From assembly GCA_007119395.1 (NCBI GenBank), contig SKPS01000251.1, positions 1-37,874 on the forward strand: DNA of 37,874 bases, written 5' to 3'. The DNA is from Lentimicrobiaceae bacterium (GTDB lineage Bacteria > Bacteroidota > Bacteroidia > Bacteroidales > SKPS01). Below, piece after piece: positions 10,128 to 37,874 of the stretch. Each line of letters begins with the position of its first letter. Within the stretch, counting starts at the first letter, position 1. The notes under the pieces were generated by a model. That model made no database searches. It saw only the letters and a list, made by a program, of their open reading frames with translations, and was not told the DNA's origin. A program made the translations under genes and the position numbers.

Positions 10128-10745
10128 TCACTTTTCTGATACCTTGGCTTTGGGACCTAATGCCCGATAGTATTGTAAGGCTTCGTCAGCATATTGATGC
10201 AAACTGTCTAACGTACGATGGATCTTGATCAACTCAGGGGTGAAGTGTACCACCTCCTGATGCGTCTCGGAAATATACATGGTCTCTGACATCACGTAAT
10301 GCTCCACAGAATCTTTGGGAATATGACTCCTTCGAATAGATTGGCGCAAAGCGTTCAGTTGATCGCCATTGCGTTCATGCCTCTCCAATAAACGGTAATG
10401 ACGCGTTAATAGTTTCCTGAGGCTTCGGTCGTTGGCAGAGTAGAGTGTAATAAACTCCCATTTACCTCCATCCCTTACCATCTCCTCGCTTTCGACCTCT
10501 TCAATCGCCTCAGAGATGTCACCCCACTTGCCGGCAAATATTTCCCTTGAACTTTTGGCTCCTACAGTATCCACTTGCATAAGGATTGCATTTGTCTCCT
10601 GATGAATGGCAAGCAGACTGTCGATCTGCTTGATTTCATCTGCAAATTCATTGTTTTGGCATGCTCCTGTCAGGAAGAGTAACCCGAGGGCAAAAGCCAG
10701 AGAGAAATATCCGATTCCTTTTAACATGATTACGCGTTTCTTCAC
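10128..10745 (-). CDS. hypothetical lipoprotein
   Basis: 205 aa. An N-terminal hydrophobic segment ends in LTGAC (lipobox-like Cys). It lies 7 nt upstream of the TPR gene. No family recognised. Confidence 0.6.
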   Translation of the reverse strand: MKKRVIMLKGIGYFSLAFALGLLFLTGACQNNEFADEIKQIDSLLAIHQETNAILMQVDTVGAKSSREIFAGKWGDISEAIEEVESEEMVRDGGKWEFITLYSANDRSLRKLLTRHYRLLERHERNGDQLNALRQSIRRSHIPKDSVEHYVMSETMYISETHQEVVHFTPELIKIHRTLDSLHQYADEALQYYRALGPKAKVSEK

Positions 10746-16888: not shown

Positions 16889-16945
16889 ATCTTATGTTAT
16901 AATTTTCTGATCATTAACGTAAAACAGTGAATGTTATTTCGGGGT

Positions 16946-22090: not shown

Positions 22091-22188
22091 AAACAACATA
22101 TTGTCAGTGCTTTTGCCATGTTCAGGTGAAGCGCCCGGATGGGTGGATCCGGGTTGCCGTTGGCCCGTTGAACAGGTTCTGCACGCCA

Positions 22189-22196
22189 CAAAGATA
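22189..22196 (-). promoter_or_regulatory. candidate internal -7 box upstream of porU (TATCTTTG on the minus strand)
   Basis: The + strand caaagata is TAnnTTTG on the minus strand. It lies in the only sizeable gap of the array (about 173-182 nt, MBOAT stop to porU start), 90-99 nt upstream of the porU ATG. Confidence 0.3.
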
Positions 22197-22272
22197 GCGA
22201 TCAAATAGAAACCAACGCATAATGAAACAATCCATTGTATGGTTTGTTGATGCAGCAACCACAAGACCAAGG

Positions 22273-23940
22273 CTAAAACTGGAAATAGATAAATGGCTGC
22301 ATGTCGGCTGAGATCGACTGGTAAATGATAAACACCACTACACAGCTGATCACGACCTTCGCCCACATCGGAGTGCGTATAAACCATTGCTGATACTTCT
22401 CTTTCAAACGGCTTGGCCACCAATGCAGGATAAATCCAAACAACATCATCAAAAACACATTTTTATACCCCACTAAGATATCCGGAATCAACCCCCACTG
22501 GAAGTCGTTGGCAATCTGATGCATCAGTTCATAAGTGCCCTCCATGGATTCACCCCTAAACCAAATGCGCGTAAAGGTGATAAAATTGAAGGTCAGAAAG
22601 ATCTTCCACACCGTAGCAAGTCCGTGATTTGCTTTTTCCCACGGGCTGATCCGCCGCCAGTACTTGTAAAAGATCACCCCCAAGCCATTCAATCCACCCC
22701 AAATCACGAACATCCAGCTGGCACCGTGCCATAAGCCGCCCAGCAACATGGTGAGCAGGATGTTGATGTTGGTAGTGATGTGTTTCTTTAGTGATGGGAT
22801 CAGCCTGGTAAGGAGCCAGATAATTGAGAAAGAGCCTGCCATGATGGGTATCAGCAGCAGTTCGCCCGATATCATAATCACAAAGAGGAGGATGGCGGAG
22901 AGACTGATCCAGGTAAACAGTGACCCGCGACGGTTTCCTCCCATTGGGATGTAGAGATAATCTTTCAACCACGACGACAGAGAGATGTGCCACCTTTGCC
23001 AGAACTCGCCCGTGTTCCTGGCTTTATAGGGTGAGTTGAAGTTCTTCGGCAACCGGAAGCCCATGAGCAGTGCAACCCCTATGGCAATATCAGTGTAGCC
23101 TGAGAAATCACAATAGACCTGAAGTGAATAGCCGTATAGGCTCATCAGGTTTTCAAACCCTGTGTAACTAAGGTGGTTGCTGAAGACCCGGTCAATGAAG
23201 TTCACCGCGATATAGTCGCCAATTAAAATCTTCTTGATCAACCCCTTCAGGATCATCCAGACAGCCAGTCCAAACTCAGCCTTTGTAAGGGAAAAGTCTT
23301 TGTATAACTGTGGGATAAAATCGGCAGCGCGAACAATAGGCCCCGCCACCAGCTGAGGGAAGAACGAGACATAAAATCCGAAATCGATCAGGTTGTTTAC
23401 AGGCTTCACCAGCCCTCGGTAAACATCCATCGAATAGCTGATGGTTTGAAATGTGAAGAAGCTGATGCCAACGGGTAGCAGAATAGCCCCTACATCGAAC
23501 CGGGTTCCGGTGGTAGTATTGGCAATCAAGGCCAGGTGATTCACCACCTGGTACTGTGTTCCGATGAAATTGTTGAATGACTCAACAAAGAAGTAGGCGT
23601 ATTTGAAGTAGCTGAGCAGTCCCAGGTTCACAAAAATACTCAAGCCGACCAATAGCTGTTTGGCGAGGGGTTTTTTACTGCGGTATATTCCCCTGCCTAT
23701 AAAAAAGTCGGCAAGGGTTGAGAATATCAGAATAAAGAAAAAGAACCCTGACGATTTATAGTAGAAGAACAGGCTTGCGAGGAAGAGGTATCCGCAACGG
23801 ACTGTTTTGTTTTTTGATTTTCCCAACACCGAGTAGAATATCAGCACCACCAGGAAGAATGCCCAGAAGGCGAACCGTGTAAAGATCAGCGGTTGCTCTT
23901 CGTTGTAGGTGAATATGGCATGTAGATATTCCTGTATCAT
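22273..23940 (-). CDS. MBOAT-family membrane O-acyltransferase (AlgI/PatA/DltB-like)
   Basis: 555 aa and polytopic. Motifs: FFTFQTISYSMDVYRG and the conserved His block FWQRWHISLSSWLKDYLYIPMGGNR. Confidence 0.9.
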   Translation of the reverse strand: MIQEYLHAIFTYNEEQPLIFTRFAFWAFFLVVLIFYSVLGKSKNKTVRCGYLFLASLFFYYKSSGFFFFILIFSTLADFFIGRGIYRSKKPLAKQLLVGLSIFVNLGLLSYFKYAYFFVESFNNFIGTQYQVVNHLALIANTTTGTRFDVGAILLPVGISFFTFQTISYSMDVYRGLVKPVNNLIDFGFYVSFFPQLVAGPIVRAADFIPQLYKDFSLTKAEFGLAVWMILKGLIKKILIGDYIAVNFIDRVFSNHLSYTGFENLMSLYGYSLQVYCDFSGYTDIAIGVALLMGFRLPKNFNSPYKARNTGEFWQRWHISLSSWLKDYLYIPMGGNRRGSLFTWISLSAILLFVIMISGELLLIPIMAGSFSIIWLLTRLIPSLKKHITTNINILLTMLLGGLWHGASWMFVIWGGLNGLGVIFYKYWRRISPWEKANHGLATVWKIFLTFNFITFTRIWFRGESMEGTYELMHQIANDFQWGLIPDILVGYKNVFLMMLFGFILHWWPSRLKEKYQQWFIRTPMWAKVVISCVVVFIIYQSISADMQPFIYFQF

Positions 23941-23945
23941 TGGGT

Positions 23946-25235
23946 TTATGGATGTTGGGTGATGATAGGTTTTTGTTCCAGGTGATCGCCATAGCTTTTC
24001 AAGAGGGCACTGAACATCAGGTCACCTTTGAGGAGGTATCCTTCGCGGGTGAAGTGAATGCGGTCGTTTTGCATGAGGCCGTGTGAGTGCCACCGAGGTA
24101 CGGAATTGAACCCTCCCATCACCTGAAAAAAGTTCCAAACGCCGCAGTGGTGTTTTTGTGCAAGGCGGTAGATAACGGTCTCTTGTTGTATTGTAGCGGG
24201 GTTGGCGCGGCGACGGCGGAGGTACACATCGTTGGGTACTGTTAGTAAAATATCGGCTTCGGGTACGGCAGTTTGGATGGTTCTGATCAGCTCTTCATAG
24301 TTGCGTTCAAATACGCCCGGGTCGAAGCGGGTAGAGTAGCCGTCGTTGGTGCCCAGGGAGATCACCACCAGGTCGGCTTTGATGGCCTGGAGCTGTTCAC
24401 CCATCAGGTTGGCACGAAGGAATGAAGGGATGCTGGCTCCGTTGACACCGAGCGCTGAGTAGATCACGCCTGGGTGATCTGTGGTGGACTCAATGCCGTG
24501 CACTTCAATAAATGCAGGGCTGTTGTCGGTCTTGTAAAACTCCAGTGTAAAGGTGTCAACCGGTGCATTCAGCCGTATCTCTGTTATGCCTTGATGAACC
24601 TGTTGTATCGAATGAACCAGCCATGGGTCATCGGTTGCCATGGTGATGCGGTAGTTGTGTGTGGGATCGTAATGGTGCACCCTGATGATATCGCTCCCGA
24701 AAGGCAGCGATGTGTCACGGTTTGAGATGGTGATGGTGGCAAGGCTGTCACCTGTTACAACCATCATCCCTGCAAGACCGAAGTTGCAGGTTGCGTTTCG
24801 GGTGGTGTTCCTGCAATGTTGCCAACGTCCGGTATAGCCTACCGTGAAGTTGGTTGGGTTGTTGCTTCCGGTGACTCTGACGGGGAAGATCAATCCGCGC
24901 CCTCCATGCATACCGGGCTGAAGCTGCTGCAGTCGCTTGCGAACCTGGTGGGTGTAAATATCGGTTTGGATATGTGACCCGCCGATATGCACAATATGGA
25001 CCTGCCCTGTGCCATAAAAAAGCAATGAATCGAGCTTGTTGAAGAAATGCCCCAAGAGGGGTCTGTCGCCGGGTTGAATGAGCCTGTTGGTGTCGTAATT
25101 GATAAAACTATATGGCGTTACAAAGGTGGGGTCTTCCAGTGGTGTCTGACCGTTCAGCGTACAGAGAGGTGCAGCCACAACCCAAAGAAACAAAAGGATC
25201 TTACGTATATTATGATGCTGCTCCTTTCTCCCCAT
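23946..25235 (-). CDS. exported SGNH/GDSL-fold hydrolase or acyltransferase (PatB/Ape/AlgJ-X-like)
   Basis: 429 aa with a signal peptide. SGNH blocks: I HIVHIGGSHIQTD, III VISLGTNDG, V DRIHFTREG (DxxH). It lies 5 nt upstream of the MBOAT gene. Confidence 0.75.
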   Translation of the reverse strand: MGRKEQHHNIRKILLFLWVVAAPLCTLNGQTPLEDPTFVTPYSFINYDTNRLIQPGDRPLLGHFFNKLDSLLFYGTGQVHIVHIGGSHIQTDIYTHQVRKRLQQLQPGMHGGRGLIFPVRVTGSNNPTNFTVGYTGRWQHCRNTTRNATCNFGLAGMMVVTGDSLATITISNRDTSLPFGSDIIRVHHYDPTHNYRITMATDDPWLVHSIQQVHQGITEIRLNAPVDTFTLEFYKTDNSPAFIEVHGIESTTDHPGVIYSALGVNGASIPSFLRANLMGEQLQAIKADLVVISLGTNDGYSTRFDPGVFERNYEELIRTIQTAVPEADILLTVPNDVYLRRRRANPATIQQETVIYRLAQKHHCGVWNFFQVMGGFNSVPRWHSHGLMQNDRIHFTREGYLLKGDLMFSALLKSYGDHLEQKPIITQHP

Positions 25236-25236
25236 C

Positions 25237-26685
25237 TTACCGTGTGTTTTGTTTGTATTGCTGATACTCCCATATCAGGGCATTGTAGAACATATTGCCG
25301 ATGAGTCTGGCACCGCGAGGGGAGAAGTGGATATAATCGGGTGATGCCAATGGGGGATCGGCTTCAACCCATGCAGGCATCGAGTTGTATCCGCCCATCG
25401 CTTCGTACATATCCCAAAATACTCCTCCGGCCCTGAAAGTGGCATCCTTCAGTGCATCACGCACACTCTCCAGCAGGGGATAGGTCACATAGTACTCACG
25501 CTCCTTGATCGACTTGTCCGAAGGACCAATCACGATGATACAAGCTGAAGGGCGCAAGCGTTTCAAGGTGAGCAACTGGTTGTAAAACCACTGACCATAT
25601 CTGATGCACTGCTCTTCGTCTTCAAGATATGGCAAAGGGTTGCCGCCAAACTGCAGGATAAAGAGCTCTACATTGAGTTCGTTGTACATTTGCCTGAGCT
25701 GCTCGCGGTTCATTCTGTTGAAGATGGTTCCTGAGCTCCCTCTCATGGCGATGTTGTCAACCATCACTCCACCACCCGAAGAGAGGTCTACACCGTACAC
25801 ATCGGGGCTGTCATACCCTGAGAACGTAATGGTGACATTACCGGTTCCGGTGTAGGCATATACCGACTTCATGTTTTCAAAGATGGTATCACGCCGCAGC
25901 AGCCCGTCGTCACCTGTAATGGTGATGGCCACCGGCGAGTGTGTATTGCCTGCAAACACCCGCAATTGGTTGAAAGGGTATCGGGTTTCAGAGAAAGTGA
26001 CACTGGCACTTTGCCACAGAGAGTCTACAAACACTGAATCATGCACGATGGGTGCATACCGTGAGAAGCTGGCCATTGCGCCAAATCCGTTGTGTGGCAC
26101 GTCACTTCGTCTGCCGAACAGAGCATGTCGTTGCCAGTCCCCTTCCAGGGAGCGTTCCACTGCACGCGAATTGTAGAGGTCAACAACGGGCACCAGCCCT
26201 GGCCCGGAACCACCGAACTGTGACTGCAGGTTTCTACGCAATAAATGGGTGATACGGTCCCCTTCGATTTGTGAATCACCATAGTGCAAAATGCGAATCT
26301 GTCTTCGTACCAACGCCAGCGAGTCGAGTTTCCTGAAAAAGGGATAGAGCAACTGAGTGCGCCCTTCAGGGAATTCGAGGTGGCGGGTGGTTAACTCATC
26401 AATGCCTCTGAAACGGATCGTGAATGCACCCGTGGCTGTGTCTTCAGCCAATACAAGCTCCTCCTCTACCTCTTCTACAACCTTTTCTACCTTTTCTGCT
26501 GCCTCCTGAAAGGCGGTTACATCTTTGTATTCAGGTCTGTTCGGGCGAATCACATCCATTACCCCCGGGAAGTGGAGTGATATGGAGCCCACTTTCACGC
26601 CATCACTCGGGAACAGCCAAGCGATGACCCCAAGCAAGGCGATCACTGATAATACAAAAAGGGTGACTCGTCCGGGATTCATCAT
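25237..26685 (-). CDS. membrane-anchored SGNH/GDSL-fold hydrolase or acyltransferase (PatB/Ape/AlgJ-X-like)
   Basis: The start is set at ATG 26685 (MMNPGRVTLFVLSVIALLGVIAWLF, an N-terminal TM anchor), 7 nt after the upstream stop. SGNH blocks: ILHYGDSQIEGD, ILQFGGNP, DYIHFSPRG (DxxH). Confidence 0.75.
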   Translation of the reverse strand: MMNPGRVTLFVLSVIALLGVIAWLFPSDGVKVGSISLHFPGVMDVIRPNRPEYKDVTAFQEAAEKVEKVVEEVEEELVLAEDTATGAFTIRFRGIDELTTRHLEFPEGRTQLLYPFFRKLDSLALVRRQIRILHYGDSQIEGDRITHLLRRNLQSQFGGSGPGLVPVVDLYNSRAVERSLEGDWQRHALFGRRSDVPHNGFGAMASFSRYAPIVHDSVFVDSLWQSASVTFSETRYPFNQLRVFAGNTHSPVAITITGDDGLLRRDTIFENMKSVYAYTGTGNVTITFSGYDSPDVYGVDLSSGGGVMVDNIAMRGSSGTIFNRMNREQLRQMYNELNVELFILQFGGNPLPYLEDEEQCIRYGQWFYNQLLTLKRLRPSACIIVIGPSDKSIKEREYYVTYPLLESVRDALKDATFRAGGVFWDMYEAMGGYNSMPAWVEADPPLASPDYIHFSPRGARLIGNMFYNALIWEYQQYKQNTR

Positions 26686-26692
26686 GCCAAGC

Positions 26693-28357
26693 CTACCTGG
26701 TGGGAATTTTGATACGTTGCCCTGCCTGCAGGGTTCGGGGGTCACGGATGTTGTTAAGCCGCATGATCTGGTCAGCCGTAACACCCGGATGCCGGGCGGC
26801 TATTGCTGAGATGGTTTCGCCCCGTTGCACTGTGTGCCACGAAAACCCACCCGATGAGGGTTGGCTGGTCTGACGTGCCGATGCCGGCTGTGTTGCACCA
26901 CGCTGCTTTTCAGCAAAGGTCATCCTGTCAATGTTTCGATAACGCTGCTCACTCGCCTCGGGAACCCAGATGTCCAAGACCTGCCCCACACGGATGATGT
27001 CGCCCGGCAAATTGTTCCATCGACGGATATCCGATACACGTACACCGTACCAACCCGCTATGTAGCCCAGGTTATCGCCATCTTTTACTGTGTAGTTCAG
27101 CTTTACCCTGCCGGCCGGTTGCATGGGTGCCTGCACCACCGCTTCGGTGGCAACCTCTCCGCTTTCTGCCTGAACAGCCTCCTCTGATACATCTGCCGAG
27201 GCCTCTGCCGAAGCCTCCGCCACTGTCTCAGAAGCCTGGCTCATCACCACTCCTCTACGGGTCGGGAAGTATATCGAATCACGAAAATAATAAATCGAGT
27301 CAGCAAACTCAACGAAGCGAGCATGGTGCTCTGCCGGCAGGCGGAGCCAGAATACTCTCTCGTTGCCCGCCGGAATCACTCCACTCTTAAACTCCGGGTT
27401 CATATCCTGCAACAGCCCTTTGGAAACTCCCAGAAAATCAGCAGCCTGCCCAAGGTGCAAACGGTGCTCTACGGGAGCACGCATGCTTTGCAGAGGGTTG
27501 TGTATCGTGTAAGGTGTTAACCCAATCTCCTCTTGCATCTGCACCAATATGTAGCAAGCTGCAAGGGCCGGCAGGTAGTCACGCGTCTCAACCGGAAGCC
27601 ATGGGTAGAGGTCTGCATAGTCTCTTGACCCACCAGCTTTTCTGATGGCCTTGTTGATGTTTGACGGGCTGTTGGTATAGGCCGCAATGGCGAGCTCCCA
27701 GCTCTGGTAGATGGCATACAGGTCGTTCAGGTGTTGAAGGGCCGCTTTTGTTGACTTAGCCGGGTCACGCCGCTCATCAACAAAAGAGTCGATCTGAAGC
27801 CGATACAACCTGCCGTTGGTATACATAATCTGCCATAAGCCTGTTGCACCCCATGACGACACAGCTTGCAGATTCATGGATGAAAGGGCCATGGGCAGGT
27901 ACTTCAGACCTGCCGGCATCTCGTGTTCAGCAAGGATTGACTCAAAAAGTGGCAGATAGGAGGAGGTGAGCCCCAGCATAATCTCCACCTGCCTGCGGAT
28001 ACCCGGTTGGGTGTAGTATTTCAAAAACTCATACACCCTTGGTGTATAGGTCAACCCCAAAGCGGGATCCATGCCCTGTAACACCTTCTCAGCTTGTGCA
28101 GGGGTAACACTCTGTAGGGTTGAATGGTGATTCCTCTGCCCCTCCATCGATTGCTGCACAAAATACAACTTCTCTAAACCCCTTAACGCACTATCAAACG
28201 GGGCAAAGCCGGGAGGTAGCCCCTGATGTGCATTCACACCAATTGAAACAAAAGCCAGCATAAATAACAACCAAAACCTGTAAACCCGTAATGAATAGAT
28301 GTTCATTTTTATTATGTTGATTTTCATTTTCTGTAACAAGACAACCATATGCTTCAC
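26693..28357 (-). CDS. MltD-like GH23/SLT-domain protein with two C-terminal LysM domains; the catalytic Glu is apparently substituted
   Basis: SLT-domain core: YLPMALSSMNLQAVSSWGATGLWQIM...DERRDPAKSTKAALQHL...IAAYTNSPSNINKAI. Two LysM repeats: YTVKDGDNLGYIAGWYGVRVSDIRRWNNL and HTVQRGETISAIAARHPGVTADQIMRLNNI. ATG 28306 (MNIYSLRVYRFWLLFMLAFVSIGVNA, a signal peptide) is a plausible true start. Confidence 0.85.
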   Translation of the reverse strand: MKHMVVLLQKMKINIIKMNIYSLRVYRFWLLFMLAFVSIGVNAHQGLPPGFAPFDSALRGLEKLYFVQQSMEGQRNHHSTLQSVTPAQAEKVLQGMDPALGLTYTPRVYEFLKYYTQPGIRRQVEIMLGLTSSYLPLFESILAEHEMPAGLKYLPMALSSMNLQAVSSWGATGLWQIMYTNGRLYRLQIDSFVDERRDPAKSTKAALQHLNDLYAIYQSWELAIAAYTNSPSNINKAIRKAGGSRDYADLYPWLPVETRDYLPALAACYILVQMQEEIGLTPYTIHNPLQSMRAPVEHRLHLGQAADFLGVSKGLLQDMNPEFKSGVIPAGNERVFWLRLPAEHHARFVEFADSIYYFRDSIYFPTRRGVVMSQASETVAEASAEASADVSEEAVQAESGEVATEAVVQAPMQPAGRVKLNYTVKDGDNLGYIAGWYGVRVSDIRRWNNLPGDIIRVGQVLDIWVPEASEQRYRNIDRMTFAEKQRGATQPASARQTSQPSSGGFSWHTVQRGETISAIAARHPGVTADQIMRLNNIRDPRTLQAGQRIKIPTR

Positions 28358-28388: not shown

Positions 28389-30215
28389 CTACCGGGAGCG
28401 ACCCGGCCCAACATCCTGGTTCACGCGGGTGCGTTCACCCCTGCGATATACCACCTGGTATAAAACACTCCCCCTGTTGTCGTAAAATGTCCATGTGCCA
28501 TGTCGTTGGCCACGCCTGAATGATCCTTCAGACTTCTTTCTTCCATTGGCATAAAACTCGGTCATTTTCCCGTGGAGTTCTCCCCTTCTGTAATTCTGCA
28601 TCTTAAACGGAACACCGTTTCTGTCGTAGAATTTCCACTCACCGATCCGTTTACCGTTTCTGTTTTGCCCTGTTTCCTGAAGGATTCCTGTATCATACCA
28701 AACCGAACTCCTACCGTGTAACAGTCCATTACGGTAATGGCTCTCGGAGCGCTTAAGCCCTGAAATATAATAGTGTAGCGAAATGCCGTGGCGTACCCCC
28801 TTGTCATAAGCAACCACATATCTTGGTTTGCCATCGTCATAAAAGCCTTTCCATACCCCATCCATCTCCCCTTCAACATAGGCTCCTTCGTCTTTGACCT
28901 GTCCGTTATCAAACCAGTTCATCCAGTACCCATGGGGTTTACCATTTTTATATTTCCCCTCTTGTAGTTTCTGCCCCGATTCATACCAGGTGGTCCATAA
29001 TCCGTGGCGCACCCCCTCTGTGAAGTGACCACGTCGCCACGACTCACCGGTAGAATACCAATACGCCCACTCTCCGTGTTGCAACCCTTCAGAAAAAGGG
29101 CCCTTGCTCGCACGTCCACCCTTTTCATGGTAAAAGACCCAGATGCTGTCTTGAAGATCAGCAATCAGTGCACCCTCCATTTCCTTGTTGCCGTTTGCAA
29201 ACCACCAGGTGGCGTAACCGTGCAGACTGTCGTTTTTATAATACCCTTCAAACTCAGGGTTCCCATTGCGGTGCCATGAACGGGCCGGTCCTTTCCTGAC
29301 TCCCTGTACATAGGTGATCTCCTCGCTCAGGTTGCCGTTTACATGCCAACGGGTACTCTTTCCATCTTTTACGCCATGGTGCCAAAAGACCTCCTCCCTG
29401 AGCTGCCCCGATGAAAACCACTGACGCCAAATCCCCTCCTTCTCTCCATTCTCAATCATCCCCTCCTCACGCAATGAACCATCCTGAAACCACGACCTGT
29501 TCATGCCATGGGTCAGATTCACCTCGCTCATCTTCTGGCCATTGGAATACCAGCTCTCCCACAAGCCAATCTGGCGCCCCATATCGTAAGAACCACGCGT
29601 CTGTAGTTGACCGTTGGGATGGTAACGCTTCCACTCACCATCATTCATCCCGTCACGTAACTGCCCCTCCTCTTTGAGCTGACCATTCTCATGCCAATGC
29701 CTTGAAGGGCCGTTCTCCAAATGAATCTCGCTCATCAACACCCCTTCCGGCGACCAGGCACTCCACTTGCCGGTCCGCACACCCTCAGCATACTCCCCCT
29801 CAACCATCAACTGTCCCGACTCATAAAACCCCTTGTAGGGCCCATGTAACTTCCCGTTGACCATGGTGCCCTCCTCCATCAAACGACGATTGGAATGCCA
29901 TACACGGTACGGGCCATTGCCGTAAACAATCTCGCTGCGAATGTTGCCGTCAGGATGCCAACTGCGCCATAAACCCACCTTCTCGCCGGCGCTGGAGTAG
30001 CGCCCCTCTCGCATCTTCCGACCATTCGAATAGAAATATACCCACTCCCCGACAGGGACCTCCGCGGTGTCAACCTTTGCCTTGGCACCCCTGGTCGCCA
30101 ACTGCCCATTCGGCCAATAGGTCTCCCTTGTTTGCTGTGACAGAACACAGACTGGCAACAACAACATCAACAGGAATAGTGTCGCCGTCATACGTATCTT
30201 TGTCTTCCGTTCCAT
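28389..30215 (-). CDS. exported MORN-variant / YwqK-type repeat protein
   Basis: The start is set at ATG 30215 (MERKTKIRMTATLFLLMLLLPVCVLSQQ, a signal peptide). The rest is about two dozen tandem ~23-aa repeats of the form [WYFH]xxNGQLxxEGxYxxGxxxGxW. Confidence 0.8.
   Translation of the reverse strand: MERKTKIRMTATLFLLMLLLPVCVLSQQTRETYWPNGQLATRGAKAKVDTAEVPVGEWVYFYSNGRKMREGRYSSAGEKVGLWRSWHPDGNIRSEIVYGNGPYRVWHSNRRLMEEGTMVNGKLHGPYKGFYESGQLMVEGEYAEGVRTGKWSAWSPEGVLMSEIHLENGPSRHWHENGQLKEEGQLRDGMNDGEWKRYHPNGQLQTRGSYDMGRQIGLWESWYSNGQKMSEVNLTHGMNRSWFQDGSLREEGMIENGEKEGIWRQWFSSGQLREEVFWHHGVKDGKSTRWHVNGNLSEEITYVQGVRKGPARSWHRNGNPEFEGYYKNDSLHGYATWWFANGNKEMEGALIADLQDSIWVFYHEKGGRASKGPFSEGLQHGEWAYWYSTGESWRRGHFTEGVRHGLWTTWYESGQKLQEGKYKNGKPHGYWMNWFDNGQVKDEGAYVEGEMDGVWKGFYDDGKPRYVVAYDKGVRHGISLHYYISGLKRSESHYRNGLLHGRSSVWYDTGILQETGQNRNGKRIGEWKFYDRNGVPFKMQNYRRGELHGKMTEFYANGRKKSEGSFRRGQRHGTWTFYDNRGSVLYQVVYRRGERTRVNQDVGPGRSR
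28440..30120 (-). repeat. protein-level tandem array of about 24 MORN/YwqK-type repeats
   Basis: I counted the repeat cores by eye: WPNGQL, YSNGRK, HPDGNI, YESGQL, HENGQL, HPNGQL, YSNGQK, FQDGSL, FSSGQL, HVNGNL ... YANGRK, YDNRGS. The boundaries are approximate. Confidence 0.65.
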
Positions 30216-30234
30216 AGCTGGCAAAGATATAAGG

Positions 30235-31209: not shown

Positions 31210-31231
31210 ATTCTACACACTTTTTATCCCC

Positions 31232-31239
31232 CAAACGTA
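31232..31239 (-). promoter_or_regulatory. candidate Bacteroidota -7 box for ispB and the downstream array (TACGTTTG on the minus strand)
   Basis: The + strand caaacgta is an exact TAnnTTTG on the minus strand, 22 nt upstream of the ispB ATG (31209). The lptB box has identical spacing. Confidence 0.4.
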
Positions 31240-31489
31240 CTGCTTTTTCCTGAAACCGTCGCAACCTTGACATACGCAAGACAATGGAATATGTGAAACA
31301 GCCATGAGAAGTGTTTTTAACATTTCGTTAGCAATATAGTTGTGTTTTTATGAACTATCTGCTTGACTTAGAGGTAGTTTTTTTCGTATTTTGATTCGCG
31401 AAAAAGAAATAACCACTGTGTCGGGCCTCATAGAATGTAAATTGTTGTTGGAATCACCCAACGGCTACAGGTAATAAAAACCACTCTGC

Positions 31490-31570
31490 ATGCAGAAAAA
31501 CAAATTCACTCTTACTGCAACAGTCACCCTCTTTCTGCTTTGGGCTCTCTTTGCTATTCCGGTCAAAGCG
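31490..31570 (+). other. Sec (type I) signal peptide of the giant ORF
   Basis: A K-rich n-region (MQKNK) is followed by a hydrophobic core (TLTATVTLFLLWALFAI) and a VKA/QQ cleavage-like site. There is no lipobox Cys. Confidence 0.7.
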
Positions 31571-34500
31571 CAGCAAATTTTTGTGTTCATCGAAATGCAC
31601 CCAATGCCACCGGCATCGCTTTATCAATGGGACCGTGAGGGGATGATGATGTTTGTTGTTGCTGACAATATGAGTACGACCACCCACCAGGCACACCTGA
31701 TGGTGGAATTGTATGATGAATATGACCGGTTGGTAGGGGAGAGCAGGTCGCCACGTGTTGTCAACATTGCACCCGGATTCACCGAGATACCTCATCAAGG
31801 GTTGCTCACCTCGGGTGGGTTTACCTTTTTGGATCCACTCCGAAGGCCGATGCAAAACACCGGAATCTTCCCGGAGGGAGAATACAGACTTTGTATCAGA
31901 CTTGTTGATGCCGTGACCAACGTGGTCCTCTCCGATGAAGCCTGCACCTTTTTTATGATTCAGGGTTTTGAAGCCCCTTATTTGCTGTATCCTGAGGATG
32001 GTGTGGTTCTTTCTGAACCGCAACTGTTGAGTACGGTATTTCAATGGACACCTTTTATGGGCGATCCTTTTCTTTCCATCGCCTATCGGTTGGTGATGGT
32101 TGAAGTCTTACCCGGACAATCTGCCTATGAGGCTCTGCTTGTAAACCAACCAGTGGTTCAGGAGACCGTGGAGGAGCCTTTCTGGCAATGGGACGACAAA
32201 TACGTTACCCCCAAGCCGGAAGCCTCCTATGCCTGGTCGGTGGTGCTTACCGATGTTGAGACAGGGCGTGACCAAACCTCCTATGCTCCACCCAGAGTGA
32301 TCGTTTTCTGGCCTGCTGATACCATTCCTGTTACCGATCCCCCTATAGACATCCCTCCGTACGATCCACCTCCCGAAGACCCGCCCGCAGAAGCGTGCGA
32401 TCCCCCCGATTACACTCCGGAACCCGCTACACCTATATCGCTCGGCATGATGGTCGACGACTCTGAACTGCACCTCTACCCAAGGGCCGTCCCCATCAGG
32501 GCAGAAGCCATCGACTGGGACCTGCTCTGGCTCTATTGCTCCGGCTGCGACGGAGGCAGAAGCGAAGAACCTATGCCGGTAATGGATGAAGTGCACGACT
32601 TTACCTGGGAACTTATCGATGGTAAAGGGTCTCTCAATATCCCCTTTGACCCTTTCAGATTCAATCAAATCAAAGACTCCCTGCAAAACATCCATAAACG
32701 CATAACCGAAATTGAAGACTCGCTCATCCAAATAGCACAAGACACACTCGAGCTACCGAATCGAACAGAAGCCCACAAAGCACGCATCGAAGAAAAAGAG
32801 ACAGAAAATACCGGCCTCGATTCGCTTATCGCACTTATCAATGACACCCTGCAGGTGATCAATCAACAACGCGGTGACCTGTTTGATGACATCAATGCTT
32901 TGATCGGCCAAACAGACAGCATCCAGCATTTGATATCCAACCTCCTGGATGAAATTGATTCCCTGAGATATTTGCTGAGCGGACCGCCATCAGAAGAGGA
33001 GCTGACACAACGAACGGTTGTTGCAGACCATCGTACGGTGCTCACAAACCTTCAGGAAGAATTGATAAAACATGAACAGGAAACAACAAAGCAATCCGAT
33101 GCCCTGAAGCAAATCATACAGGATGCGAAAGATGTGCTGGATGCAGCTGCTACTGCGTACAATGATCAAAAAGAGATATCTGAAAACATCTCAAAAAAGA
33201 TTGCTGAAGAGGAGATCAAGCTGCTTGAAGACCCCGACACCCGTGATTTTTTGCTCCACAGAAGGTTCTGGTACGGTACTGCCAGCGGCTTCATCGTTGA
33301 ATATGCCATGGGTCAGCATATTGGGCTATACAACACGATGGACAACCTGTTCAGCCAGTCGAAAAATTGCCTGATTGAAACCGATACCACCGTCAGACAT
33401 GCCTGCCATAACACTTTCGACAACAGTCTGGTAGGATTGTATCAGCAACTGACCAACCGTTGCGCTGCCCTCCCACCGCACGAACGCCACGACTGCATCG
33501 AAGCTTTCTCTTATGTAACGCAAACATATCAGGATTTCAGGCAGACCATGCAGCGTCTTGTGTACTCTGAATACCTCTATCCAGTTCAAATCGAGATCAC
33601 AATTGACAGCCTGAGGCAGGTGTTGCTGGCGATGGAAAGTGTGATGAATGCTGCACAAAACCAGGTTGAACAGTCAAACCAGGCTTACAGCCAGGCTCTG
33701 TCTGATTATGTAGAGGAAATGCAACTGCTCGACAGTCAGAAAGCTGATATGCAGCAGAACATCGTTGAACAGGCTGACTCTCTTTCAAGACAGGAGCACA
33801 AGTACAACCTGCTGGTGCAGGCACGAAAGGATGAACTGGAAAGAAACAGAGAGCAGTTCCTCGAAGGGGTGCATGCCGCAGAAAGCAGCATCAACTCCAT
33901 GGAGAGTGCAATTGATCATTTGCAGGATTCTTTGAGTACACTCTATGCTGACACCTTTGGCCTTTTCGTGATCAAAACAGAATTTGAAGAAGAGAAGGAG
34001 AGGCTTGAAGCGCTCAAAGAGAAAAACGAGGAGCTGATCCACAACCTTGTTGACCTGATCGATGCGTTGGAGCAACGTATTGAGGCCCTTAAAAGGCGAG
34101 CTGAAGAGTTGATGGATGAAATGGAAGCGCTCAGGGAGCAGCAAGAGAGTCTGGAGGAGGAGCAGGTGGAGGAAATGGCTGGCAACACCTCGGCCACGGG
34201 ATACTATGTGTACTATATCCCGCCGCCATTGGAAGAGGTGATGAAAGACAAAGGGACTTACCCGAGGTTTGAAGCGCTTCGCGACAGTGTTAAAGCTGCC
34301 GAAGACTCCCTTCAACTGGCATATTTCAAAAAAGAGCAGGTGCAGCGTATTATTGCCCTCGAAACAGAACGGATTGGAAGGGCACTGGTTGAATATAAAA
34401 AGAGTGAGGACCAGATCAATGCATTAAATGATCAGGCCACGGAAGCAGAAAAAGAGTTGGCCAGGAAAAAAAATGAGATAACGCAGGAATTTCACAACCA

Positions 34501-37500
34501 GCAATTGCAATTGCAGGAGTTGCTCAACAGTGCAGAAGAGAACCTCAACAAAGCATTGCAGCAAAAGGAGGATTACACCTCCGACAGTCTCAAGGTGAAA
34601 GAAGACCTGGAGCAGATGGTTCGGAGCATCACGCAGCATGACAGTTTACTGAGTCTGTTGCAACAAACCATCGAAGACAAGCAAAACGAGCTGAATAACA
34701 AGCAGGAGTTGTTAAGGGCAGCAGAGCCTACCCTTGCTGATCAATCCAACGAGTTGGAAGCGAAAAGGCGATTGCTCAGGGAAAGAAATACTGCCTTATC
34801 GCAGCTCAACAACCACCTGTCCAGGGCCAATGTGATGGGGGAGCAGGAAGCGATCAGGCAGGTGAGGGAGCTCATTAAAGACACTGAAGACGAAATCAAA
34901 ACGCTGGAGGAGACCGATATCCCGGCCAAGGAGCAGGAGGTTGCCGGGAGTGCAGCCAGTGTTCAATCTGCTGAAGCAAGTGTGTCAACAGCCAGGGAGC
35001 AGCTTGGGGTGTTACTCGGGAATCAACAGCAAAAACGCCTGCAGGCCAGAGAGCTGCGCGACAGCCTTGTGAAAGGGAATGAGGCATACGCCGAAGTGTT
35101 ATCCGGCCTTGAACATTGGCGTAGGGTTGAAAGATTGGCTCACCGATTGATCCGGAACACGAACCAGGCGCGTGAGGAACTCCAGGATCATGTTGAAGAC
35201 CAGATAGGTCAGGATGAAGAGGTGTCAGCACATGAAGAGAACCTTGAAAACATCAAGCAACAGATTGAAGAGCATGAAAATGCGAAAAAGGATGCCATTC
35301 ATGCTATCAATGAGTCTGTTGCAAGGAAAGAGCGTGCGATAAACGAAGCTGATAAGCAACTTGCCAAAGCCAAAGCCAATCTTGAGGAGGCGGAAGAGGA
35401 GTTTCGTGCGTTTTTGGTCGAAGAGTTTGAATCAGTGGAGATTGAAGCAACCATCCGTTTAAGAGCGAAAGACGCCGTGATTGATGCTTTTCGTGCCGGA
35501 GATGAAGAAGCCGAATTGATTAAAACGATCCGCTACGAAGGCTCCCGTATTCCCGTTTTTGAAAATGAGCCTGCAATAGAACAGATACCGGATGAGCCGG
35601 ATGTGGCGAGCGTTTGTCTGGTTCAGGAACTGCTGGAAGAAGGTGCGCTGCCTGCAGAAATGACACCCCCACGTGTTCTGCGACCCGAACCGCGTACCAT
35701 TGCACTTGTCTATGAGGATGGGAAACCTCTGTGGGAAGAATGGCCTGTGTTTAGAAATACTGATGTGATTGCCAAAGATGTGGTGGAAGTGTATGCTGAA
35801 TTCACTCCTGACTTTGATCAACTGGAGATTAAGTGCTACACAGCCGATGGTAAATGTGATGAAGTGAAAACCCTGGAAAGCATCCGTGACCAGGGACCTT
35901 ACCAATGGAAATACGAGGGTCGTAATATTGGAAACCATCCGCTCCAGAACAGGTTTCTCTGGGAACCCCGTTTTGTGGAGAAACCGCTGCCTGAAGAGAA
36001 ACTGGAAATTGAGGCGTTGCTCATTGCCAATCATTTGGCACCTGATGATCCTGTTGACAGCGATGACAGCATCCTGGTGATTCCGGGTGTGTTGGTAGAG
36101 GTAACCGACAACCTGGTGGGTATTCCGGACACAACCATGGAAGTGCAGGCACGGGTTGTTACCGGTGACCATAAAGGGTTGGCAGGCGAAGACATAGAGT
36201 TTTCAGTTGAACGAATGGCTGGTTCATCCGAAGACTATGGCTTTGATGGTGACACCATCATCACCGTTCAAACCGATGGTGACGGGTATGCGAAGGCCGA
36301 TTTTGATTTTGGTGATGGCTTTGCCCGGTTCAGGATTCATGCCAAATGGTTGCGCGATAGCGTGGTGATCGATGAGGAAAGTTTTGATGCCATCGCTCCA
36401 ATCCGATTGAGTATTCACAGGTTTTCGGCTGGTGCTCCACCTTTTGCTTTTGATGCAGCACTGGAAATAATACAATCTGAAGGTGATGTGAGTCAGGAAA
36501 AAATAGACGAGCTGACAGGCGACTTCCCCCCATCCGTTGGGGATGATGCCGGCCAGGACTATGCTTACGTTGTACGTGCAATTGCCGGACTGTTAAATGA
36601 GGAGCGTGATGCTGCTGAAGATGAAGAGGTGCTTTTTGAGCTGATGCCGGAAGAGGCAGGCATTGACCCGGAAGAGACCCGTACGGGGGCTTTCGGACTG
36701 GCCTTTGCGATCGTGAAAGACCTCCCTGATGAAACCAATCTGCTTCTCAAAGCATCAGTCGAAGATGCCTATCAACCGTTGGGCCGGCCACCGAAAGACC
36801 AGGCCACCTATAACACAAGCCTGTTCGACAGGTTCCGGATCGGCTCAAAAGACAACCTGTTTGTCGTGATCCTGGATGAGCCCGTTTCTGAAGGGGAACT
36901 GATCTCAGGAACTGGGAGACTGGGTGTGGCAGATGATGGCATCAGCGATGGTATCATGAATGAATTGATGGAGGTGAGTTTACACATCAACGAAGTAGAG
37001 CTGGCCGACAACGGCGAAGATCGTATCGCGGTTGCAGGCTCGGTTTCATGGAGCAGCGCAACATCTGTTAGCAGAAATATCCTGGGCTTTGACGTGGGTG
37101 TAGACTCCTTTGTGGTTACAGCCTCCCTGGGAGGCGGGATTGGCGGCGTTATCAGCCATAACTCCCTGTCAGCACCGGTAAGGTTCTATGCCGAAATTGA
37201 ACCTACTGGCGACTTCCTCGGAACAATAGAAAACATCCCCGCCATAGAGTTAGGTGGCTTTAAGTTAAGAGAAGGCTCCTCCTTCACCATTGACATGCAT
37301 AAAATGAAAAGCCCTCCAGGCTTTGCAAACAATTTCAGTGGCGTGGTCATCCACTCAGCAAGCCTGGAACTGCCTGCAGTTTTTGCAACCGAAGCAACCG
37401 GCAGACCTTCCCGTTTGCATGTGAAAGATTTTTTCATCGGTTCAGCCGGTATCGGCGGAGAGATCAGCTATGCCGGTTCCATCTTCAGACTGGGATATGC

Positions 37501-37874
37501 CGGTTATGCTTTCGAAGCCGACAGCATAGGCCTCAAATTTGAAAACGACAGCCTGATCTCAGGCGTCTTTAGCGGTCGAATCCACCTGGCATCACCGATG
37601 GAAGGGAGAATCCGAACAACCATCACCGCCGCCGGAAGTGGTTGGGCCGCAGATGTATCCACCGACAACCCAGTCTCCATACCACGATTGAGAACATCCT
37701 TCTCACTCCTGTCAGGTACAGGCATCCAATGGAATCAACCTACCAGTACCGGAACCCTCACCCTCAATGCCATTGTGACATCTGAAACCATCGGAGAAGT
37801 TACCGTGATGGGACTTGAAGTCAACTCAAAAGGTGAAATCAAAGCAGATGAAATCAGCATCGACAAAGCAGTGA
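31490..37874 (+). CDS. giant exported modular coiled-coil protein of unknown function, 3'-truncated by the window edge (at least 2128 codons); absent from the supplied ORF track
   Basis: I translated the frame line by line; codon starts are at positions congruent to 2 mod 3. In-frame TAA TAA at 31472-31477 is followed by ATG 31490. There is no stop through the last full codon, 37871-37873 (GTG). The N-terminus is MQKNKFTLTATVTLFLLWALFAIPVKA/QQ. An open frame of this length cannot plausibly arise by chance. Confidence 0.92.
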   Translation, partial: MQKNKFTLTATVTLFLLWALFAIPVKAQQIFVFIEMHPMPPASLYQWDREGMMMFVVADNMSTTTHQAHLMVELYDEYDRLVGESRSPRVVNIAPGFTEIPHQGLLTSGGFTFLDPLRRPMQNTGIFPEGEYRLCIRLVDAVTNVVLSDEACTFFMIQGFEAPYLLYPEDGVVLSEPQLLSTVFQWTPFMGDPFLSIAYRLVMVEVLPGQSAYEALLVNQPVVQETVEEPFWQWDDKYVTPKPEASYAWSVVLTDVETGRDQTSYAPPRVIVFWPADTIPVTDPPIDIPPYDPPPEDPPAEACDPPDYTPEPATPISLGMMVDDSELHLYPRAVPIRAEAIDWDLLWLYCSGCDGGRSEEPMPVMDEVHDFTWELIDGKGSLNIPFDPFRFNQIKDSLQNIHKRITEIEDSLIQIAQDTLELPNRTEAHKARIEEKETENTGLDSLIALINDTLQVINQQRGDLFDDINALIGQTDSIQHLISNLLDEIDSLRYLLSGPPSEEELTQRTVVADHRTVLTNLQEELIKHEQETTKQSDALKQIIQDAKDVLDAAATAYNDQKEISENISKKIAEEEIKLLEDPDTRDFLLHRRFWYGTASGFIVEYAMGQHIGLYNTMDNLFSQSKNCLIETDTTVRHACHNTFDNSLVGLYQQLTNRCAALPPHERHDCIEAFSYVTQTYQDFRQTMQRLVYSEYLYPVQIEITIDSLRQVLLAMESVMNAAQNQVEQSNQAYSQALSDYVEEMQLLDSQKADMQQNIVEQADSLSRQEHKYNLLVQARKDELERNREQFLEGVHAAESSINSMESAIDHLQDSLSTLYADTFGLFVIKTEFEEEKERLEALKEKNEELIHNLVDLIDALEQRIEALKRRAEELMDEMEALREQQESLEEEQVEEMAGNTSATGYYVYYIPPPLEEVMKDKGTYPRFEALRDSVKAAEDSLQLAYFKKEQVQRIIALETERIGRALVEYKKSEDQINALNDQATEAEKELARKKNEITQEFHNQQLQLQELLNSAEENLNKALQQKEDYTSDSLKVKEDLEQMVRSITQHDSLLSLLQQTIEDKQNELNNKQELLRAAEPTLADQSNELEAKRRLLRERNTALSQLNNHLSRANVMGEQEAIRQVRELIKDTEDEIKTLEETDIPAKEQEVAGSAASVQSAEASVSTAREQLGVLLGNQQQKRLQARELRDSLVKGNEAYAEVLSGLEHWRRVERLAHRLIRNTNQAREELQDHVEDQIGQDEEVSAHEENLENIKQQIEEHENAKKDAIHAINESVARKERAINEADKQLAKAKANLEEAEEEFRAFLVEEFESVEIEATIRLRAKDAVIDAFRAGDEEAELIKTIRYEGSRIPVFENEPAIEQIPDEPDVASVCLVQELLEEGALPAEMTPPRVLRPEPRTIALVYEDGKPLWEEWPVFRNTDVIAKDVVEVYAEFTPDFDQLEIKCYTADGKCDEVKTLESIRDQGPYQWKYEGRNIGNHPLQNRFLWEPRFVEKPLPEEKLEIEALLIANHLAPDDPVDSDDSILVIPGVLVEVTDNLVGIPDTTMEVQARVVTGDHKGLAGEDIEFSVERMAGSSEDYGFDGDTIITVQTDGDGYAKADFDFGDGFARFRIHAKWLRDSVVIDEESFDAIAPIRLSIHRFSAGAPPFAFDAALEIIQSEGDVSQEKIDELTGDFPPSVGDDAGQDYAYVVRAIAGLLNEERDAAEDEEVLFELMPEEAGIDPEETRTGAFGLAFAIVKDLPDETNLLLKASVEDAYQPLGRPPKDQATYNTSLFDRFRIGSKDNLFVVILDEPVSEGELISGTGRLGVADDGISDGIMNELMEVSLHINEVELADNGEDRIAVAGSVSWSSATSVSRNILGFDVGVDSFVVTASLGGGIGGVISHNSLSAPVRFYAEIEPTGDFLGTIENIPAIELGGFKLREGSSFTIDMHKMKSPPGFANNFSGVVIHSASLELPAVFATEATGRPSRLHVKDFFIGSAGIGGEISYAGSIFRLGYAGYAFEADSIGLKFENDSLISGVFSGRIHLASPMEGRIRTTITAAGSGWAADVSTDNPVSIPRLRTSFSLLSGTGIQWNQPTSTGTLTLNAIVTSETIGEVTVMGLEVNSKGEIKADEISIDKAV
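32312..32434 (+). other. proline-rich linker in the giant ORF
   Basis: The translation reads PADTIPVTDPPIDIPPYDPPPEDPPAEACDPPDYTPEPATP. Confidence 0.8.
32660..35440 (+). other. coiled-coil-rich rod region of the giant ORF (about 925 aa, with two non-helical inserts)
   Basis: E/Q/L/K/A-rich heptad-like sequence runs throughout, for example IKDSLQNIHKRITEIEDSLIQIAQD, EKERLEALKEKNEELIHNLVDLIDALEQRIEALKRRAEELMDEMEALREQQESLEEE and KQLAKAKANLEEAEEEF. The boundaries were set by eye. Confidence 0.75.
36068..36349 (+). other. bacterial Ig-like (Big_1/invasin-type) module in the giant ORF, tentative
   Basis: SILVIPGVLVEVTDNLVGIPDTTMEVQARVVTGDHKGLAGEDIEFSV...TIITVQTDGDGYAKADFDFGDGFARFRIHAKW follows the pattern V.D..G.P....V.F......G....TD..G.A typical of Big domains. 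Confidence 0.45.

Follow-up and report, generated by a model that had tools for sequence, protein, structure and literature searches.

What does a gene encode when its reading frame enters the end of a contig and never closes? Such a frame occupies the last part of the window, by which we mean the whole 37,874-nucleotide (nt) stretch analyzed here, contig SKPS01000251.1 of a Lentimicrobiaceae bacterium (GCA_007119395.1). An initial annotation, made from the letters alone, had placed a giant open-ended open reading frame (ORF) of at least 2128 codons at ATG 31490, and retranslation of window:31472-37873 on the plus strand agreed with it: two stop codons, TAA TAA, are followed by the start ATG 31490 (MQKNKF...), and 2,128 codons then run without a stop to 37873. 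The frame is missing from the mechanical ORF list, which leaves out frames running off the source, as had been suspected. By our own arithmetic, with about 3/64 stop codons expected, a stop-free run of this kind has a chance probability of ~1e-44. A word-indexed protein search returned a near-identical full-length protein of 2,528 amino acids (aa; P0001), whose ENA contig, L001, is an independent assembly that overlaps the window. Across 6,384 common coding bases the two assemblies are 99.7% identical, their 19 differences comprising 12 synonymous and 7 non-synonymous changes and no frameshift, and L001 carries the frame 400 codons beyond the window edge to a stop after codon 2,528. Because the stop-free run is long and the second assembly reaches a stop at 2,528 codons without a frameshift, the ORF is genuine, neither a chance run nor an assembly artifact. 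The stop or frameshift that resequencing might have exposed, which the initial annotation held would overturn its call, is absent from L001.

The layout proposed for the visible part of the product also stood: a signal peptide, two beta modules that form an N-terminal head, a Pro-rich linker, a long helical stretch, and immunoglobulin (Ig)-like and beta-rich modules (Table 1). The signal peptide has a Lys-rich n-region, a hydrophobic core and small residues at -3/-1, lacks a lipobox Cys, and has equivalents at the N-termini of the homologs, as read from their sequences. Together with this signal, the 12 Cys of the protein, several of which are conserved, point to an extracytoplasmic character. 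As expected, no named family fits the whole protein. No Pfam or NCBIfam model reached its cut-off on the window protein or its full-length homologs, which gave only coiled-coil noise (SMC, Rad50, CCDC) and weak matches to TANFOR, and no toxin family appeared among the Pfam/NCBIfam matches of the giant protein.

The giant family is rare. A first homolog search yielded 13 clusters, and an exhaustive profile search with the C-terminal half recovered 77 representatives at E<1e-30, about 60 of them full length (2,300-2,900 aa). Collinear homologs in this size range occur in 31 of 185,579 GTDB species, with one genome considered per species, and they are spread over Bacteroidales, Crocinitomicaceae, Cryomorphaceae, Balneolaceae, Ignavibacteria and ‘Chlorobiota’. 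A single cultured isolate, Saccharicrinis sp. FJH54, is found among the 31 loci. A word-indexed search with the head alignment returned two fragments only. Ten loci (L011, L013, L016, L020, L022-L024, L029, L034 and L036) come from metagenome-assembled genomes labeled Hyphomicrobiales, Chromatiales, Desulfobulbaceae, Bradyrhizobiaceae, Armatimonadota or Acidobacteria. The encoded proteins nevertheless group with Ignavibacteria/Bacteroidota-type homologs, and the labels look unreliable or the contigs mis-binned.

Does the giant gene belong to a larger system? The initial annotation had suggested that it might be the first gene of a system continuing past the window, and the longer contig bore this out. 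In L001, a gene for a chain of Fn3 domains starts 20 nt after the giant gene, and a gene for an outer-membrane-barrel-like protein comes next. Nearly all loci carry a ~680-aa gene directly after the giant gene; a ~560-aa gene comes next or else immediately precedes the giant gene. In Saccharicrinis sp. FJH54 (NZ_JBHJHP010000001.1), the giant gene spans about 241,181-248,842, the Fn3 gene 248,846-250,873 and the barrel gene 250,873-252,615. All-against-all clustering of the ORFs from 31 non-redundant loci revealed three recurring families, present in 31, 28 and 28 loci, against 4 loci for the next best family. The trio is also supported by tblastn synteny, and its intergenic gaps measure 0-43 nt. 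The giant protein, the Fn3 chain and the barrel-like protein are a self-contained three-gene module that occurs in otherwise unrelated contexts. The 17-kb “envelope-biogenesis array”, from which the initial annotation had noted divergent transcription, fared differently: none of the window’s polyprenyl synthase, MORN, LysM/SLT, GDSL, MBOAT and PorU2/PorV2 genes recurs near homologs. Because its genes do not recur there, we regard the array as a coincidence of position, and a functional tie to these neighboring envelope genes was rejected.

Both partners carry signal peptides. The Fn3 partner (~680 aa) contains about six to seven Fn3 domains (Pfam fn3, 3.5e-22). The other partner (~560 aa) ends in F or Y in most members, the L001 copy ending in ...LRYAYHF. 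Among 19 barrel partners scanned at E<=1, weak matches to OMP_b-brl (4/19) and TonB-barrel (1/19) models were obtained and none to Omp85, POTRA, ShlB, POTRA_2 or Bac_surface_Ag; there was no NCBIfam match, and no Por-family match at E<=0.01. From its sequence, we read this partner as an outer-membrane barrel of a new family. In profile searches against the PDB, neither the C-terminal half nor the head nor the barrel partner gave a match. Overall, the three families and the 640-residue beta meander at the C-terminus of the giant protein have no curated match above threshold, the Fn3 partner matching only the generic fn3 model.

Which parts of the module belong together most tightly? The two-domain head (~250 residues) is conserved in all homologs. 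Its second domain, which we read as Ig/Fn3-like from the motif pattern P.L..P..G....F.WTPV...Y...EVLPGQ...YAW.V, always accompanies the first, even in head-only proteins of 287-330 aa. The TANFOR model, TIGR02542, scores 13.4-16.2 bits on the window protein against a cut-off of 67; it is the sole recurring family among the heads (6/13 at E<=1, best E 9e-5, all below the cut-off). Toxin-type relatives (P0205 and P0202) reach merely 16.7-20 bits with this model, and a hidden Markov model (HMM) built from the giant-family heads alone matches the heads of AHH-toxin proteins at 71-73 bits. Judged from these profile matches, the head appears to be a remote relative of the TANFOR domain, which was described as the N-terminal domain of predicted Bacteroidetes polymorphic toxins with Sec signals and Fn3-rich neighborhoods, for which the authors speculated about export via a type IX secretion system (T9SS) (Jana, Salomon and Bosis 2020, PMC7073777). 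A literature search found no other paper mentioning the TANFOR domain.

The head also occurs on other proteins. P0102/P0176 (1,785 aa) combine head and beta meander and lack the rod, and they led to proteins in which the head is followed by Fn3 domains and an AHH nuclease or deaminase toxin. With an HMM of the full-length giant protein, the head alone was common to P0186, P0179, P0188 and P0181, head and meander were found in P0176 and P0101, and the meander alone in P0104 and P0112, grouped here as proteins without a signal peptide. The barrel gene lies adjacent or nearby in all six non-toxin contexts examined (L037, L038, L040, L041, L043 and L044), four of which also have the Fn3 partner; the genes of P0186, P0179, P0188 and P0181, which have just the head in common with the giant, likewise keep it close by. 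We then find the same association from the opposite direction. A metagenome scan that took only the barrel protein as its seed gave 26 loci. In 21 of them the next ORF downstream of the barrel gene bears a head, as detected by the HMM built solely from the giant family, and four of the five remaining loci stop at the contig edge. At the small end, these head-bearing neighbors are head-only proteins of 287-330 aa that have signal peptides; at the large end stands a giant-family protein of 2,829 aa. The Fn3 partner was present in 9/26 barrel-seeded loci, always next to a cargo of >1,600 aa. Thus, the head tracks the barrel gene whether it is followed by nothing, by another payload, by a beta meander or by both rod and meander. 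Since head-barrel adjacency holds independently of the payload and in both search directions, head and barrel are the conserved core, and the remainder of the protein is payload.

Several features of these loci deserve mention in their own right. In L056-L058, L062, L063, L065 and L068, the barrel gene is followed by a head-only protein (287-330 aa), seemingly a minimal version of the system. Five of these seven loci (L056-L058, L062 and L065) also have, 3-5 kb upstream, a second head-bearing gene, which encodes 457-755 aa; in the two examined for this, L057 and L065, its product ends in a Cys-rich tail. The genes that combine head, Fn3 and AHH toxin in one protein, at L039:3247-7941 and L042:2778-7436, are each preceded by an unannotated gene of ~1,550-1,560 aa, whose product matched neither the HMMs of this analysis nor NCBIfam. 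In L039, an array of four ~220-aa genes, of which two are Imm11-like, comes after the toxin gene, and downstream of the L042 toxin gene lies one unannotated 165-aa gene.

How might the module work? The reading we prefer, and hold tentatively, is that the giant protein is the Sec-exported cargo of a three-gene envelope module in which head and barrel provide anchoring or export and the rod acts as a spacer. After Sec export, the head would dock in or at its cognate barrel, by a logic that we liken to two-partner secretion (TPS) or to plug-and-barrel pairs, and the barrel would either anchor the giant protein at the outer membrane or export it across. The rod would be a fixed-length spacer that holds the C-terminal block at a set distance, the Ig-like and beta-meander C-terminal block would be the working end, and the Fn3-chain protein may help large cargo. 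A surface or envelope-spanning fiber, one suggestion of the initial annotation, is plausible for the giant protein. Several points weigh against the reading that we prefer. Surface exposure of the giant protein is something that we purely infer. The toxin loci L039 and L042 lack a barrel or Fn3 gene within 8-10 kb. The barrel partner has no Omp85 or POTRA match and the head no TPS domain, which limits the two-partner analogy to gene logic alone. Finally, the C-terminal block and not the head is the best conserved part, and in autotransporter-like systems such a pattern marks the membrane anchor.

A broader proposal, which we consider doubtful, is that head and barrel constitute an unrecognized outer-membrane anchoring or export route of the Fibrobacteres-Chlorobi-Bacteroidetes (FCB) superphylum, with cargo from head-only proteins to 5,500 residues and perhaps including TANFOR-type toxins. 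It is possible, at rather poor odds, that such a route would parallel the C-terminal-signal T9SS with a signal at the N-terminus, and would resemble TPS without being related to it in sequence. That the giant family would use it to display a fixed-length rod (60-120 nm) bearing a new beta-meander fold is likewise conceivable and somewhat unlikely. If the head-barrel pairing is true, it would represent a new outer-membrane pathway for the group of phyla to which gut and environmental Bacteroidota belong, and a testable candidate for the exit of TANFOR toxins, for which PMC7073777 could only speculate about T9SS. The giant protein would then be an unusual exported protein whose ~1,000-residue rod is constant across Bacteroidota, Ignavibacteria, ‘Chlorobiota’ and Balneolaceae, indicating a ruler-like or reach-setting role. 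If the pairing is wrong, a correctly delimited, conserved and uncharacterized operon is still described, and an undescribed three-gene module of this kind could reveal new ways of anchoring or exporting giant proteins in Bacteroidota-type bacteria.

Comparison with known systems places these proposals in context. Judged by sequence, the closest known kind appears to be the TANFOR class of large exported Bacteroidetes proteins. Like the giant protein, its members are large, carry a Sec signal directly before the homologous N-terminal domain, occur in T9SS-carrying lineages and are associated with Fn3. Unlike them, the giant protein and its relatives score only 13-20 bits with TIGR02542 against the cut-off of 67. 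The giant protein also ends in a conserved C-terminus instead of a variable toxin, is followed by an Fn3 chain and a barrel gene instead of an immunity gene, and adds a ~1,000-aa helical rod and a beta meander; a cognate barrel gene is not mentioned in PMC7073777. The resemblance to two-partner secretion (type Vb secretion system, T5bSS; TpsA/TpsB pairs such as FHA/FhaC and CdiA/CdiB) is one of organization: a huge exoprotein with a ~250-aa module after the signal peptide, an adjacent gene for a ~560-aa outer-membrane protein (in 28/31 loci of the family and 21/26 barrel-seeded loci), and variable C-terminal payloads that include toxins. However, the giant protein lacks a TPS (Haemagg_act) domain in Pfam/NCBIfam scans (E<=0.1 to 1) and a beta-helical shaft, the barrel lacks Omp85, ShlB and POTRA, the lineage is FCB, and there is a third partner, the Fn3 chain. 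The module may be called T5bSS-like in gene logic by analogy, with all sequence-based tests for membership in T5bSS having failed.

T9SS cargo such as SprB-like filaments with PorP/SprF-type partners offers another parallel, in that a giant surface-type protein of Bacteroidota is encoded beside a dedicated outer-membrane protein gene, and PorU2/PorV2 genes lie in the same window. A check of the true C-terminus for a T9SS sorting domain, proposed in the initial annotation, came out negative: neither type A nor type B was found with Pfam at E<=0.1 on P0001-P0003 or with NCBIfam at E<=0.05 on P0002. In contrast to T9SS cargo, the putative recognition module is N-terminal and the barrel matches no Por family. 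Sequence-based membership likewise appears to fail for T9SS cargo, trimeric autotransporters, SMC proteins and AsmA/TamB.

What is the rod, and why does its length matter? Residues 393-1330 are rich in E/K/Q/R/L/A, show a 3.5-residue hydrophobic periodicity and are nearly devoid of conserved Pro/Gly; the helix totals about 930-1,020 aa and is mainly heptad-type. Conserved breaks in the first segment fall at G498/P500 and P582 in a Pro/Gly map of 38 homologs. The non-heptad insert (aa 583-700) holds four Cys (627, 639, 658 and 669), of which C658 and C669 are conserved. The best conserved spot of the rod (smoothed conservation 0.85) is its central motif, G..VYYIPPPLEE, a possible hinge, apex or binding site. 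Between aligned boundaries, the rod measures 927-940 aa in 12 of the 13 first-found homologs, at 28-41% identity, the thirteenth (P0013) being a truncated fragment. Motif-to-motif distances are 529-546 aa and, from the central motif to EPRTIAL, 476-493 aa, summing to 1,016-1,031 aa, in 26 sequences that comprise 16 distinct proteins and close cluster variants. The rod length is thus nearly invariant, unlike that of the pre-rod region, which varies from 352 to 720 aa in full-length homologs.

The ~810 helical residues of the rod correspond to ~120 nm if extended and ~60 nm if folded back. Folding back into an intramolecular hairpin is conceivable: the helical lengths of the two halves are close (~400 vs 415 aa), and breaks lie at comparable distances from the central motif. 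Against it, arm lengths show no positive co-variation, and matching of the conservation profiles ranked the predicted register second only. The heptad rod with its conserved central break, VYYIPPPLEE, recalls SMC, Rad50 and MukB, and one public record of the family (P0014 from JGI/IMG, in the P0005 cluster) is named “chromosome segregation ATPase”, apparently a misannotation from coiled-coil similarity. A cytoplasmic SMC-like chromosome protein, as this name implies, has next to no chance of being correct. SMC/Rad50 models reach 33-56 bits against cut-offs of >=567 and match the coiled coil alone, P0001 lacks a Walker A motif (G....GK[ST]), the termini are beta-rich, a signal peptide is present, and the rod halves do not co-vary positively. 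We consider an SMC-ATPase identity refuted, with ATPase motifs absent and an export signal present, and the name of that record contradicted by the sequence of P0001, the window’s own family member. The initial annotation had also called long coiled coils uncommon in exported proteins of diderm bacteria, which we judge overstated: the stalks of trimeric autotransporters and OmpM/SlpA are counter-examples.

A constant rod could also be a structural element or ruler inside the envelope, running along or across the periplasm and held at the outer membrane by the barrel, with nothing exposed at the surface. We consider such a periplasmic scaffold or tether unlikely. The strictly conserved length of the rod suggests a ruler, each of the three proteins carries a Sec signal, a known signal for export through the outer membrane was not found, and by our own estimate a chain of six to seven Fn3 domains about spans the width of the periplasm. 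On the other hand, a rod of 60-120 nm is, by our own arithmetic, two to four times the usual periplasmic width, and a rare and patchy family would be unusual for a core envelope element. Moreover, predicted secreted toxins (AHH, deaminase), which need to exit the cell, begin with this head too (PMC7073777).

We next turn to the other end of the protein, whose C-terminal 1,100 residues are beta-rich and form the best conserved block. The junction that follows the rod (aa 1331-1430) is conserved, yet has a predicted local distance difference test score (pLDDT) of 31-43 over most of model residues 1-100 when predicted alone. The AlphaFold2 (AF2) model of aa 1330-2528 is nearly all beta (pLDDT 72, predicted TM-score (pTM) 0.33), and its partial Foldseek matches include intimin D0-D1 (TMt 0.38), alpha-2-macroglobulins and Nup210; the homolog P0003 has a weak Pfam match to Big_1. 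Modeled alone, aa 1889-2528 gave a pLDDT of 83 and a pTM of 0.52, with ~42 long antiparallel strands joined by short turns. No other part of the protein is as well conserved as this meander, whose mean column identity is 46-53% (46% over 25 species). Foldseek was run with the C-terminal 1,199 aa against the PDB and with the meander against the PDB and a library of viral models. For the meander, no TM-score exceeded 0.23 in the PDB, and nothing was found in the viral library. The PDB matches list LptD, FimD/PapC, SlpA, porins, SprA and the ApoB100 belt, with a root mean square deviation (rmsd) of ~30 A for the top matches. Because TM-scores are <=0.23 and the rmsd is near 30 A, the likeness is local, one of long antiparallel hairpins, and not a common fold; judged from the models, the meander has no solved structural relative.

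These matches bear on three further explanations. In the first, the meander is a large outer-membrane barrel that anchors the protein, with the rod as stalk and the head as distal tip. The order of head, coiled coil and beta domain fits such a fiber, as do the strong conservation of the C-terminal block, the LptD, FimD/PapC usher, SlpA and porin structures that head the Foldseek list, and the last eight residues of P0001, DVGYTIHL, which match a loose beta-signal pattern. Trimeric autotransporters and OmpM/SlpA are built alike: they are exported and combine a globular part at one end with a long coiled-coil stalk and a beta-rich C-terminus. However, the C-terminal residue varies between L, I, T, S, V, Q and F across 36 loci and in most cases is not aromatic, a homologous meander stands N-terminally in proteins without a signal peptide, and the low TM-scores and large rmsd speak against a closed barrel like those matched. 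In addition, unlike those proteins, the giant protein has no YadA_anchor or SLH match and ends in a 640-aa beta block with no barrel-like TM-score, and it is the head, rather than the meander, that the barrel partner follows. We therefore think an anchor of this kind improbable.

In the second, the giant protein is a contact-dependent weapon, a non-polymorphic cousin of TANFOR toxins, in which the rod presents the meander at its end to neighboring cells, as an effector that inserts into membranes or forms pores. This would be compatible with the same export logic as the cargo reading that we prefer. The head is homologous to those of AHH nuclease and deaminase toxin proteins followed by Imm11-like genes, the only local Foldseek likenesses of the meander are to membrane beta-barrels and the lipid-binding ApoB belt, and its presence in proteins without a signal peptide implies that the beta-barrel assembly machinery (BAM) pathway is not needed. 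Still, we rate a weapon as rather improbable: the C-terminus is conserved and not polymorphic, no conserved immunity-like gene lies nearby, Foldseek TM-scores are all low, and no toxin family matches. Finally, a long amphipathic meander might carry or bind lipids, as AsmA/TamB-like proteins or the ApoB100 belt do, and Foldseek gave some of its best E-values for ApoB100 and LptD. This lipid-handling bridge is very improbable: the TM-scores are very low, no AsmA, TamB or DUF490 match was found in Pfam, TamB is absent from the top Foldseek matches, and there is no N-terminal membrane anchor, the signal peptide being cleavable, unlike in AsmA-like proteins and TamB. We also know of no counterpart of the 930-aa helical rod in AsmA/TamB/ApoB100-type systems, which counts against such a bridge.

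Self-comparison of the meander profile suggested that a unit of ~125 aa is weakly repeated within it (hhalign, E=4e-4, probability 35%), and in P0168, a head-bearing protein of 5,511 aa, a ~100-aa meander unit recurs at least five times every ~650-700 aa. Proteins P0112-P0115, P0125-P0129 and P0164 (1,500-3,000 aa) have no signal peptide, carry the meander near the N-terminus (aa ~180-550) and share a distinct C-terminal ending. P0104 is a separate, signal-bearing relative and the sole distant match with weak similarity to DUF6603, a domain for which a literature search found no paper.

Table 1. Features of the giant gene and its upstream region, in window coordinates.
Feature	Position	Strand	Basis or remark
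Intergenic region	31210..31489	.	Between the polyprenyl synthase gene, transcribed divergently, and the giant gene
Sec (type I) signal peptide, aa 1-27	31490..31570	+	Predicted cleavage between VKA and QQ; read from translation
Head domain 1, aa 28-160, putative remote TANFOR-like beta module	31571..31969	+	TIGR02542 sub-cut-off matches, head HMM
Head domain 2, aa 161-290, beta module	31970..32359	+	Alignments A1, A3
Pro-rich linker, aa 291-317	32360..32440	+	Homolog insertions of up to ~350 aa sit here
Conserved junction module, aa 318-392	32441..32665	+	Invariant columns of alignment A1
Rod segment 1, aa 393-582	32666..33235	+	Heptad periodicity, composition, Pro/Gly map
Non-heptad insert in rod, aa 583-700	33236..33589	+	Low 3.5-residue periodicity, more aromatics
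Rod segment 2, aa 701-903	33590..34198	+	Periodicity, Pro/Gly map
Mid-rod motif G..VYYIPPPLEE, aa 904-915	34199..34234	+	Invariant in alignment A1
Rod segment 3, aa 916-1330	34235..35479	+	Periodicity, Pro/Gly map; conserved Pro/Gly absent between 925 and 1330
Junction, aa 1331-1430	35480..35779	+	Invariant motif EPRTIAL.Y..G.PLW.EWPV in alignment A2
Beta-sandwich region, aa 1431-1650, read as Ig-like	35780..36439	+	AF2 strands, pLDDT 70-91
Mixed alpha/beta region, aa 1651-1888	36440..37153	+	AF2 secondary structure; leads into beta meander
Beta meander, aa 1889-2528, first 240 residues	37154..37873	+	Remaining 400 codons at L001:9560-10759

The junction module between linker and rod is marked by the invariant motifs YPRAVP..AEAIDWD, C..C and G.GSLN.PFD. 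Upstream of the giant gene, no convincing promoter was found in the intergenic region: a sigma-70-type scan returned 2 weak sites against 0.9 expected, and the single exact match to the Bacteroidota-type TAnnTTTG box, at 31239, is on the minus strand.

The remaining genes of interest in the window are all on the minus strand. A 205-aa ORF at 10128-10745, between a tetratricopeptide repeat (TPR) protein and seryl-tRNA synthetase, has no Pfam or NCBIfam match. At 15773-22423 lie genes for PorV2 (371 aa, NF052325, 482 bits) and PorU2 (1,825 aa, NF052324, 675 bits), the “second” T9SS shuttle and sortase paralogs; this PorU2 is unusually long, with an ILEI-like domain and a weak PorZ-like C-terminal stretch. 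The genes at 22273-28357 encode an MBOAT acyltransferase, a LysM/SLT transglycosylase and a pair of GDSL/SGNH proteins, of which one shows a weak Ape1_N match, and look like a set for O-acetylation and remodeling of peptidoglycan or a polysaccharide; their ORFs overlap (e.g., 22273-22423), and the listed start codons are probably too far upstream. The 611-aa product of 28389-30224 is a MORN_2 repeat protein, and a near-identical 600-aa protein (L001 75-1877) scores 142.6 bits with the LIC20035 adhesin family, whose cut-off is 250.

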